A model generated the notes under the pieces. That model saw only the letters and a list, made by a program, of their open reading frames with translations, searched no databases and was not told the origin of the DNA. The position numbers were made by a program, and so were the translations under genes. This document shows, piece by piece, positions 14,233 to 16,124 of a DNA stretch of 64,000 bases. The number at the start of each line of letters is the position of its first letter. Position 1 is the first letter of the stretch. Location: assembly GCF_003334305.1 (NCBI RefSeq), contig NZ_QOWS01000019.1. One strand, 5' to 3'. The stretch is from Escherichia coli (lineage in GTDB: Bacteria > Pseudomonadota > Gammaproteobacteria > Enterobacterales > Enterobacteriaceae).

Positions 14233-15052
14233 TTGGAAAACGGATTTCCCCACGTCAAGAGAATTGATTTGAACGAGTGGCTTCGCTACAAACAGCTCCC
14301 GTTTGTGTGTGAAAAACCCCTCTCAACAGATCTCAACTCTGCACGATATCTACAGGAGATTGCTCCAAAAGGCAGTATCGTGTCTTTTAACTACCGATAT
14401 AACCCCGTCATCGACATGATAATGCGTCTGAGAAATGAGAAGAAATTAGGTGAACTGCATTTCTTCTCAGCAGAATTTAATAAAAATTCTGCACTGACCC
14501 GCCATCACCTGACCTGGCGAGACTCCGCACAACAGAGCAAAAGCAGCGGTGCTCTGGGCGATCTATCCTGTCATCTGCTTGATTTATTTTGTTTTATAGG
14601 GGAAAGCCCGGTAGTGGTTCATGGGATCAAAACGGTAAAGGGGACACGTGGGTACAAAATCAGATGGTCAGGTTGAAGTGGATGATAACGGCTATGTAAT
14701 GGGCAGTTCAGAAAAGGGAGCTTATTTCAGAGTTCATGCCAGTAAATCGGAAACAGATCATAATTTGGGACTGCATATACAGCTTGTATTTGAAAATGGT
14801 GAAATCAGATATTCAACCCACCATGAAAATCGCCTGCTCCTGATTCTATTTAATGATACGAATACGGAAACAATTGGCTTCGACGCTCTGAAACGCTTGC
14901 CTGATCCACCACGGGAGCTTCCATTCTGGTCTGATTCGTTTATTCATCTTCATGACGACTGGTGTGCTCTTATTAAATATGGTCACTCGTCTCCTAAGCT
15001 GGCGGACCTGTCATCCGGCCTTCATATACAGGAAATAATTGAGGCATTCTGA
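14233..15052 (+). pseudogene. Gfo/Idh/MocA-family oxidoreductase remnant (N-terminally truncated, frameshifted)
   Basis: Two overlapping frames (14233-14676 and 14648-15052) together resemble the C-terminal two-thirds of a Gfo/Idh/MocA oxidoreductase (EKP motif, GALGDLSCHLLDL); the Rossmann N-terminus is missing. Confidence 0.5.
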
Positions 15053-15053
15053 T

Positions 15054-15323
15054 ATGGATACCATTCTTTTAACCGGGCTGTTTGCTGCATTTTTCACAAC
15101 GTTTGCGTTCGCTCCCCAGAGCATAAAAACTATCAGGACACGCAATACCGAAGGTATCTCCGTTGTTATGTATATCATGTTCCTGACAGGTGTAATCTCA
15201 TGGATAGCGTATGGCATTATGCGATCTGATTTTGCCGTACTGATCGCCAATATTGTCACACTGTTTCTGGCTGCACCAGTGCTTGTAATAACACTTATCA
15301 ACCGCAGGAAAAAACACGTATGA
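15054..15323 (+). CDS. PQ-loop / SemiSWEET-like small membrane protein
   Basis: 89-aa ORF with three predicted membrane helices and a PQ motif (FAPQSIK) in helix 1. Confidence 0.45.
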   Translation: MDTILLTGLFAAFFTTFAFAPQSIKTIRTRNTEGISVVMYIMFLTGVISWIAYGIMRSDFAVLIANIVTLFLAAPVLVITLINRRKKHV

Positions 15324-15586
15324 ATATTGCAATCATCGGCGCGGGTCCTGCCGGCATCATTTCTGCCCGTAATGCGATTAAAGCAGGTCACTCCGTGGTT
15401 CTGTTTGAGAAGAATACCCGAATTGGGGGGATCTGGAACCCCTGGAGTGGTGGCGCTTACCGTAATGCCTGTATGCAGAACTCTCGTTATACATTTCATT
15501 ATACTGGCTTTCCCCCTGGCGATATCGATGAACGAAGTTGGATGCAAATGTCAGATCGTGTGCGCCTGTTAGGGCGCGGCTGGTAA
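15320..15586 (+). pseudogene. N-terminal fragment of an FAD/NAD(P)-binding monooxygenase
   Basis: 88-aa frame starting with a dinucleotide-binding fold (IAIIGAGPAGI ... FEK) and ending prematurely; full-length members are 400-500 aa. Confidence 0.4.
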
Positions 15587-15641
15587 GAGAGCCTTATAGG
15601 CGCATTTGAAAAACCTCCGGCTATGCCGGAGGATATTTATT

Positions 15642-16124
15642 TCATAATATTCTGAGCAGTCTTGCCGGGTTTCCTGCATAAATGCCTTTGTTCTCAATCG
15701 GTTTTACCACAACTGAACCCGCACCAATAACAGCTCCGCTGCATATATACGGAGACAGAATAATGGCTCCACTGCCAACAGTAACCGAATCCCCCAGGGT
15801 AATGCTGATCCAGTTATCCGGTGACGGATCTGGTGCTCCTGAACGAAACAGATCGTTGGCGAACGTCACGTTATGACCAATGAAGCAGTTCTCCCCCAGT
15901 GTTACGTTCTCACAAATAAACGTGTGCGACTGTATCCGGCTTCCACTACCAATGACACAGCCTTTCTGTATCTCAACGAAGGGGCCGACAAACACGTTGT
16001 CCCTGAGTTCACATTCATAAATGTTGACCGGTTTGACAATACGGACATTGGTCCCATAAATCACATCCCGGACAGCACATTCCATAAATTTCATACTCAC
16101 ACGTCCTTTAAATACAGATGACAC
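15642..16124 (-). CDS. Hexapeptide-repeat (left-handed beta-helix) acetyltransferase
   Basis: 160-aa ORF with repeated [LIV]G-x4 hexapeptide pattern (IGENCFIGHNVTF, VGSGAIIL, IGAGSVVV); the true start may be the internal ATG at 16094, which has an AAGGA site upstream. Confidence 0.65.
   Translation of the reverse strand: MSSVFKGRVSMKFMECAVRDVIYGTNVRIVKPVNIYECELRDNVFVGPFVEIQKGCVIGSGSRIQSHTFICENVTLGENCFIGHNVTFANDLFRSGAPDPSPDNWISITLGDSVTVGSGAIILSPYICSGAVIGAGSVVVKPIENKGIYAGNPARLLRIL

Follow-up and report, generated by a model that had tools for sequence, protein, structure and literature searches.

The window analysed here is a stretch of 64,000 nucleotides of Escherichia coli DNA (contig NZ_QOWS01000019.1, assembly GCF_003334305.1); coordinates refer to it unless another sequence is named. 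Upstream of the colicin V immunity gene cvi it carries a group of decayed metabolic genes: a dehydrogenase of the Gfo/Idh/MocA family, a SemiSWEET transporter, the start of a flavin-containing monooxygenase and a convergent acetyltransferase. These are the remains of a mobile six-gene cassette that is intact elsewhere. The remnant genes occupy 14281-16094 (~1.8 kb) and native flanking DNA extends the remnant to 16275; the 14281-16094 stretch shows 100% identity to pS88 and to more than 170 further ColV plasmids. The core of the cassette is missing or broken and two open reading frames (ORFs) are intact; the remnant has no biosynthetic capacity. Its features are listed below. L003 is the locus on plasmid pPSJ-42_1 that serves as reference for the intact cassette, and L005 is a second plasmid locus (NZ_CP070011.1 4900-10491).

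14224-14280, plus strand: Tn3-family transposon end, 57 bp, consisting of a 38-bp terminal inverted repeat (14224-14261, GGGGTCCGCTTGGAAAACGGATTTCCCCACGTCAAGAG) and 19 bp of interior
14277-14281, strandless: recombination junction; transposon interior joined to dehydrogenase codon 81/82 at a 4-bp AGTG microhomology
14281-15052, plus strand: NtdC-like Gfo/Idh/MocA pseudogene (putative glucose-6-phosphate 3-dehydrogenase), 99.4% identical to L003 8005-8778
15054-15323, plus strand: SemiSWEET transporter (EcSemiSWEET), intact, 89 amino acids (aa); its stop codon overlaps the monooxygenase start (ATGA)
15320-15586, plus strand: class B flavin-containing monooxygenase stub, 88 aa; 71 native codons, then 17 codons and a stop from IS200 DNA
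15533-15639, plus strand: IS200C right-end remnant, 107 bp; last ~110 nt of the element, downstream of the tnpA stop codon, with a hairpin at 15614-15632
15642-16094, minus strand: hexapeptide-repeat (left-handed beta-helix) acetyltransferase, intact, 150 aa, convergent with the other genes
16095-16275, minus strand: native flank upstream of the acetyltransferase and right boundary of the remnant; homology extends to 16250 (L003) or 16275 (L005)

A preliminary description, made from the letters of the sequence, had named four elements here; ORF, profile and annotation checks find all four on the strands given. RefSeq names the pieces as a Gfo/Idh/MocA protein, a SemiSWEET transporter, a flavin adenine dinucleotide (FAD)-dependent oxidoreductase and an acyltransferase. 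The remnant region is 99-100% identical to annotated plasmid records. This match, together with a pseudogene flag from the Prokaryotic Genome Annotation Pipeline (PGAP), indicates that the remnant pattern is not due to chance.

The intact six-gene cassette

The preliminary description took the group for a wrecked small sugar or small-molecule modification locus and proposed a homology and synteny search for an intact version. This search located a six-gene cassette in other genomes, with the same gene order, which aligns to the window at 99.4%. The order is NtdA-like aminotransferase, NtdB-like phosphatase, NtdC-like dehydrogenase, SemiSWEET, flavin monooxygenase and convergent hexapeptide acetyltransferase. 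In pPSJ-42_1, where the cassette spans 75757-81097, these are a DegT/DnrJ/EryC1 aminotransferase (408 aa), a HAD-IIB hydrolase (275 aa), a Gfo/Idh/MocA protein (338 aa), a SemiSWEET (89 aa), a flavin-containing monooxygenase (510 aa) and a convergent acyltransferase (150 aa).

Two blocks of the window align with L003: 14276-15532 with 8001-9258 (99.4%) and 15640-16250 with 10608-11218 (98.7%). Between the two blocks the window has a 1349-bp deletion relative to L003; the same DNA spans 1.85 kb in the window and 3.1 kb in plasmids with the intact version. The NtdA/KabA-related DegT-family pyridoxal phosphate-dependent aminotransferase and the NtdB-related HAD-IIB phosphatase are both missing. 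Neither ntdA nor ntdB nor the remaining part of the monooxygenase turned up in a search across the window.

Fifty-nine PLSDB plasmids, pAPEC-O1-ColBM included, cover at least 80% of a 5.8-kb cassette query (L003:5500-11300). In pAPEC-O1-ColBM the cassette spans NC_009837.1 69742-75542. The hosts of the intact plasmid-borne cassette (~60 plasmids) are E. coli, Salmonella and Klebsiella. All six genes, in unchanged order and orientation, are also found in the Erwinia amylovora chromosome, on a 677-kb Pantoea ananatis contig and on a 628-kb Photobacterium damselae contig; in Plesiomonas shigelloides the six-gene cassette lies on an integrase-flanked island. The six proteins have diverged in step with one another, at 63-93% identity to their E. 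coli counterparts, and the GC content of the cassette is 47-49% whatever the host. This parallel divergence and constant GC content are consistent with a horizontally moving unit.

Partial versions also occur. Xenorhabdus bovienii has the A-B-C trio (split by an insertion sequence) and SemiSWEET; Elizabethkingia has the A-B-C trio only. Outside the Enterobacterales and Vibrionaceae the search for the cassette returned a monooxygenase homologue from Yersinia canariae (54%) and a HAD homologue with 35% identity, each standing alone. Judging from the Elizabethkingia trio and these lone homologues, ntdABC-like operons do not always have the three extra genes as partners. In Pantoea ananatis (13239-19536 of that locus) a putative small-molecule cluster lies ~2 kb downstream of the cassette; it comprises a radical SAM protein, an argininosuccinate-lyase-like protein, two ATP-grasp ligases, a major facilitator superfamily transporter and a PhyH protein.

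The core of the cassette is predicted from sequence to be an NtdA/NtdB/NtdC-like pathway for kanosamine (3-amino-3-deoxyglucose). The best PDB matches of the aminotransferase are 7kz3 (4e-91) and NtdA of Bacillus subtilis, 4k2b (4e-88); the next family follows at 1e-50. The HAD phosphatase matches NtdB best (3gyg, 6e-47; next 1e-6), and its homologues are named ntdB or kanosamine-6-phosphate phosphatase in the source databases. The intact dehydrogenase orthologue groups with homologues named ntdC or glucose-6-phosphate 3-dehydrogenase (30-55% identity). A score gap separates the ntdC-named group (at least 138 bits) from generic Gfo proteins (at most 94 bits); the nearest PDB matches are other sugar C3-type dehydrogenases (~1e-14).

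NtdC/KabC, NtdA/KabA and NtdB/KabB convert glucose-6-phosphate to 3-oxo-glucose-6-phosphate, kanosamine-6-phosphate and kanosamine in turn (review PMC8788734). By analogy, the cassette would produce kanosamine from glucose-6-phosphate. Conserved context suggests that SemiSWEET exports the product, and the extra enzymes would act on the kanosamine 3-amino group. A catabolic role for the cassette was considered and rejected: a phosphatase is present and a kinase is absent, which would fit export of a free amino sugar.

The cassette shares three enzyme families, the A-B-C order and the single operon with NtdABC of Bacillus subtilis and KabABC of Bacillus cereus UW85. Unlike the Bacillus operons, the enterobacterial cassette always has SemiSWEET, the flavin monooxygenase and the convergent acetyltransferase, and it is mobile, being found on plasmids and an integrase-flanked island. 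The window copy differs from both in lacking ntdA, ntdB and the N-terminus of ntdC; it is dead. 'ntdABC' and an acetyltransferase on an enteroaggregative E. coli plasmid have been mentioned in a single sentence (PMC5320562). A literature search found no paper containing both 'kanosamine' and 'SemiSWEET'.

Truncation of the dehydrogenase and the left junction

The preliminary description of a truncated, frameshifted oxidoreductase is borne out by comparison with the 338-aa L003 gene. Codons 82-338 are kept (76% of the ntdC-like gene); the 81 lost codons include the N-terminal NAD-binding Rossmann motif GxGxxG (GIVGCGGIA). A 2-bp (GG) deletion at 14647/14648, in codon 204, results in a -2 frameshift. 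The remnant is read as one ORF of 147 aa at 14233-14676 and a second at 14648-15052. The 147-aa ORF has its TTG 'start' at 14233, inside the transposon end, and its first 16 codons are transposon-derived; the transposon DNA is in frame by chance, which makes this ORF a chimera. RefSeq records carry the gene either as two small coding sequences (CDSs) or, in newer PGAP runs, as a pseudogene ('frameshifted; incomplete; missing N-terminus').

The true left edge of the oxidoreductase-derived DNA is 14281 and not 14233. At the junction the window reads GAACGAGTGG followed by CTTCGC, against GAACGAGTGGTTAC in the element and GAAGAAGTGCTTCGC in the intact gene; the shared AGTG makes 14277-14280 ambiguous. 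The recombination junction that had been proposed on the cvi side is thus real and lies at ~14280. The oxidoreductase DNA does not abut the cvi promoter as had been thought; a 57-bp Tn3-family remnant separates it from the cvi upstream region.

This Tn3-family remnant contains a 38-bp terminal repeat of the type GGGG...ACG(C/T)(T/C)AAG. A full Tn3-family transposon has two 38-bp repeats, a DDE transposase and a resolution module; the window has one repeat and 19 bp only. A second Tn3-type inverted repeat was sought in the window and none was found, so the end is present as a single copy. In R100 (NC_002134.1 22687-22902) and more than 1600 other IncF-type plasmids the element end runs for ~207 bp. 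In pSCU-387-1 it is present as inverted copies 3.2 kb apart. In a Hafnia plasmid the gene of a 994-aa Tn3 family transposase, with an adjoining resolvase, is overlapped at its 3' end by a 92.5%-identical 40-mer. The ~207-bp end is an unannotated and very widespread scar of the IncF backbone, located near parM/stbB in some plasmids. Other ColV plasmids have different DNA past the same transposon end.

The monooxygenase stub and IS200 scar

Only the first 71 of 510 monooxygenase codons are retained (15320-15532). These contain the FAD-binding motif IIGAGPAG, and homology to L003 ends at 15532. The 88-aa N-terminal FAD monooxygenase stub of the preliminary description is correct for these 71 codons; the last 17 are read from IS200. 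NCBIfam matches are confined to residues 1-48, and the stub falls short of a complete enzyme with two dinucleotide-binding domains (FAD and NADPH motifs). The intact orthologue matches Pfam and PDB entries of the flavin-containing monooxygenase (FMO)-like type. Its best PDB match is 8odw (9e-64), labelled as a polyketide synthase module-related protein, with FMOs next; the literature on 8odw did not confirm its function and no function is claimed from it.

Sequence comparison indicates that the monooxygenase is cut by an IS200-associated deletion, which the preliminary description had missed. The IS200C scar stands in place of the 1349 bp that hold monooxygenase codons 72-510 and the native terminator. 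It matches copies in thousands of E. coli records; at one such locus (L012) the match begins at the tnpA stop codon and extends 110 nt downstream. An IS200/IS605 element has a tnpA Y1 transposase and both ends; here only the last ~110 nt remain. The right scar junction is ambiguous over 15637-15643 (shared TTTCATA), and the scar ends 2 bp past the acetyltransferase stop codon. The IS200 end is the only strong hairpin in a terminator scan.

An Rfam scan of 13000-17500 gave a sole match, a partial Ysr202 (Yersinia small RNA) at 15609-15698 on the minus strand, with 30.8 bits against a gathering score of 315. This match probably reflects IS200-family sequence in the Rfam model.

The SemiSWEET transporter

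The intact 89-aa PQ-loop protein reported earlier scores 96.7 bits against NCBIfam SemiSWEET_2 (cutoff 80); its PQ motif is Pro21-Gln22, in FAPQS. It is 100% identical to PDB entries 4X5M/4X5N over 89/89 residues, and this identity to a crystallised protein assigns it the SemiSWEET fold, a three-helix-bundle dimer with sugar transport; SemiSWEETs are dimeric sugar uniporters with three transmembrane helices. The same RefSeq protein, WP_000379710.1, is found in window-type and intact cassettes alike. Among 5,426 complete E. coli genomes, 405 (7.5%) carry the gene, and 413 of its 417 places are on plasmids.

In the EcSemiSWEET structure paper (Lee et al. 2015, PMC4309421) the protein was treated as an E. 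coli sucrose transporter. Sucrose uptake by proteoliposomes was 'slow but significant', with low affinity and unsaturated even at 300 mM, and the authors doubted that sucrose is the real substrate (PMC4309421). The window protein has the same 89-residue sequence and is the same RefSeq protein as theirs. In contrast to that account, the gene is here almost exclusively plasmid-borne and part of an amino-sugar cassette which is usually decayed. The source stated by Lee et al. is odd given the plasmid location, or their strain has such a plasmid.

The acetyltransferase

The convergent hexapeptide-repeat acetyltransferase is also intact, as first described. Its upstream end has been corrected from 16124 to 16094: the start is ATG at 16094 and not GTG at 16124, given 150-aa orthologues in five taxa, the PGAP annotation and an AAGGA Shine-Dalgarno sequence. 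Two conservative differences separate it from the L003 copy (V47 and I133 in the window); both states are seen in other orthologues. Erwinia, Pantoea, Plesiomonas and Photobacterium have the 150-aa protein in the same position and orientation.

PF00132 (Hexapep) matches are recorded for the orthologues, and many left-handed beta-helix NCBIfam families match the protein, all below their cutoffs. Its best PDB relatives (E ~1e-10) are the 3-amino-sugar N-acetyltransferases WxcM-like 4mzu, QdtC 3fs8, VioB and WlbB 3mqg. These nearest solved relatives and the gene context suggest that it may act on a 3-amino sugar, kanosamine or a derivative. QdtC, WlbB, FdtD/WxcM-like and VioB share the hexapeptide-repeat fold with it. 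Enzymes of this class act on nucleotide-linked sugars and mostly have an extra N-terminal domain, whereas the window protein is a minimal 150-aa beta-helix. The acetyltransferase probably has its own promoter within 16095-16275; past 16275 the window passes into the colicin Ia module.

Plasmid setting and order of decay

The surroundings are those of a ColV/ColIa IncF virulence plasmid. The neighbouring genes are:

11305-13419, plus strand: cvaB
13589-13900, minus strand: cvaC
13878-14114, minus strand: cvi
17640-19877: colicin Ia immunity gene and colicin Ia

Between 14100 and 16400 the window matches pECOS88/pS88 (NC_011747) and many other plasmids of E. coli and Salmonella at 100% identity; 169 PLSDB records have at least 80% coverage of this interval. 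The same arrangement is found in 177 of 5,426 complete E. coli genomes.

A related plasmid type allows the events to be ordered. In pN58-type plasmids the left junction and the frameshift are identical to the window (13800-15532, 99.94%, gapless), the monooxygenase runs for 326 codons up to an IS66 insertion, and the acetyltransferase is absent. Since these plasmids share the left deletion and the frameshift but not the right truncation, the two shared events preceded two independent right-hand truncations.

Three steps would account for the window. In the first, illegitimate recombination at the 4-bp microhomology would have joined the Tn3-family interior upstream of cvi to dehydrogenase codon 82, with loss of the dehydrogenase N-terminus, of both preceding genes (aminotransferase and phosphatase) and of the operon promoter. 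The second would be the 2-bp deletion that shifts the dehydrogenase frame. In the third, an IS200 copy between monooxygenase and acetyltransferase may have been involved in the 1.35-kb deletion that left 71 monooxygenase codons. H33 was considered as an IS200 intermediate and rejected, as its IS200 site is unrelated.

The cassette has also decayed elsewhere. On ~60-70-kb plasmids, L005 has the 3' tail of the monooxygenase and an intact acetyltransferase directly beside the microcin B17 (mcb) operon; this is a second instance of the cassette adjoining a bacteriocin locus. Abundant clusters of truncated monooxygenase proteins, and a Salmonella fusion of monooxygenase with a Tn3 transposase, represent further independent hits. 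One protein (P0030, Salmonella enterica, 481 aa, annotated 'Tn3 family transposase') shares 87% identity with the monooxygenase along half of the latter's length and also has a Tn3 transposase Pfam domain; it points to an independent Tn3-family disruption of the cassette in Salmonella.

At a query coverage of 80% or more, PLSDB gave these numbers of records:

ntdA and ntdB: 61
monooxygenase 3' part: 65
SemiSWEET: 351
acetyltransferase: 337
window-type remnant: 176

Remnants outnumber intact cassettes ~5:1.

Expression

In a published qRT-PCR study of pS88, transcript was obtained for all tested ORFs but one. Transcripts were reported for pS88110 (putative acetyltransferase) and pS88111-113 (three 'predicted dehydrogenases'). 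Fold changes of pS88110-113 in iron-depleted LB medium, serum and urine lie within the paper's 0.25-4 noise band; cvaA, cvaB and cvaC were up 12- to 44-fold in the same study. From their names and order beside cvi, rather than from coordinates in the paper, pS88110-113 appear to be the acetyltransferase and fragments of the remnant.

On this mapping, the earlier suggestion that the two intact genes may still be expressed would hold for the acetyltransferase; SemiSWEET is not among the ORFs by name. A promoter scan gave 4 promoter-like sites against 5.5 expected from shuffled sequence and lends no support to any particular promoter.

Interpretation

The remnant is best read as inert cargo: the non-functional remainder of a mobile six-gene cassette, persisting mainly by hitch-hiking on a successful plasmid backbone. 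We give this reading as a whole a probability of about 0.85. The remnant fits the pseudogenised cargo, flanked by insertion sequences and transposons, of ColV/ColBM IncF virulence plasmids, with which it has in common its mosaic make-up, the scars of IS200 and Tn3-family elements, a junction at a microhomology and hitch-hiking. It shows no essential difference from this class and is a typical example.

Several points weigh against this interpretation. The ~5:1 excess of remnants, together with at least 99% conservation of both surviving genes, could reflect selection instead of hitch-hiking. A plasmid with a full IS200 between monooxygenase and acetyltransferase was sought and not found. The pS88 qRT-PCR data are fold changes only, with no absolute levels, and do not list SemiSWEET by name. 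The NtdC assignment is drawn from the annotation names of homologues and from gene position, not from comparison with the characterised Bacillus enzyme, and kanosamine production by the enterobacterial cassette is a prediction from homology. That the monooxygenase and acetyltransferase might modify or detoxify the product is a guess from conserved context.

The strongest alternative is that the surviving pair is selected as a working module, in which the acetyltransferase is an orphan immunity protein that N-acetylates a kanosamine-type antibiotic of competitors and SemiSWEET moves the sugar. Both ORFs are intact with good ribosome-binding sites, the region is transcribed and lies amid bacteriocin genes, and the acetyltransferase retains its native upstream flank. 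On a different backbone the acetyltransferase is also preserved next to the microcin B17 operon, accompanied only by the monooxygenase 3' tail; it is found in 337 PLSDB records against 61 with the biosynthetic genes, and its closest solved relatives acetylate 3-amino sugars. However, neither gene is indispensable, as pN58-type plasmids have no acetyltransferase and L005-type plasmids have no SemiSWEET. SemiSWEET is without its operon promoter, and there is no known resistance phenotype. Purifying selection could not be detected among copies as near-identical and clonal as these, and the counts are accounted for without selection by the clonal spread of ColV plasmids. Since near-identical copies sit on clonally successful plasmids, the excess of remnants alone is no proof of selection. 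Selection of the pair is quite unlikely.

A role of the remnant as regulatory or spacer DNA recruited for cvi/cvaC expression, for example to insulate a promoter or to supply read-through transcription, is very improbable. The remnant does lie at most ~170 bp from the cvi start codon, and a promoter-like cvi site (14189 to 14161, minus strand) adjoins the transposon end. However, promoter-like sites are no commoner than in shuffled sequence, and the variable DNA past the same transposon end in other ColV plasmids also argues against this. Transcription of cvi does not track the remnant ORFs; cvaC is strongly iron-induced and the remnant ORFs are not.

The last alternative, in which each ORF would be a whole small gene from another family, follows some RefSeq records in giving separate CDSs (a 147-aa 'Gfo/Idh/MocA family oxidoreductase', a 134-aa hypothetical protein and an 88-aa 'FAD-dependent oxidoreductase'), but is refuted and practically without any chance of being right: the pieces are collinear, at 99% DNA identity, with parts of 338-aa and 510-aa genes, the 147-aa ORF begins in transposon DNA, the 88-aa ORF ends in IS200 DNA, and newer PGAP runs call the Gfo gene a pseudogene.

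The hitch-hiking remnant itself is ordinary plasmid decay and is already annotated; it is useful mainly as a lineage marker of ColV plasmids, since a dated sequence of events can be read from its three scars. The novelty lies in tracing it to an uncharacterised, extended cassette of the kanosamine type and in connecting this cassette with EcSemiSWEET. The cassette defines a conserved and mobile, as yet uncharacterised extension of the kanosamine pathway, in which SemiSWEET, a flavin monooxygenase and an acetyltransferase accompany ntdABC-like genes. The widely used structural model EcSemiSWEET belongs to this cassette as a plasmid gene, and kanosamine or a derivative becomes a testable candidate substrate.

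It is also conceivable, although unlikely, that the cassette makes a small-molecule weapon (kanosamine-type, possibly N-oxygenated) with EcSemiSWEET as its dedicated exporter, and that the ColV acetyltransferase, with or without SemiSWEET, is orphan immunity. If true, this would give EcSemiSWEET its long-missing physiological substrate.

Other features of the region

A tandem 15-bp direct repeat at 14111-14140 (CCATTACTTTTTATC and CCATTACTTTCTATC, with a further partial copy, CCATTACC) spans the cvi start codon and 5' region. Besides this pair, a repeat search of 13900-16500 gave short chance-level repeats only.

To the right of the remnant, 16387-17234 contains two overlapping ORFs of 86 and 196 aa without an NCBIfam match, which are taken to be ydfA/ydeA of the pS88 annotation. 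The 196-aa ORF, situated between the remnant and the colicin Ia immunity gene, falls in a 66% GC block whose GC content greatly exceeds that of the DNA around it.

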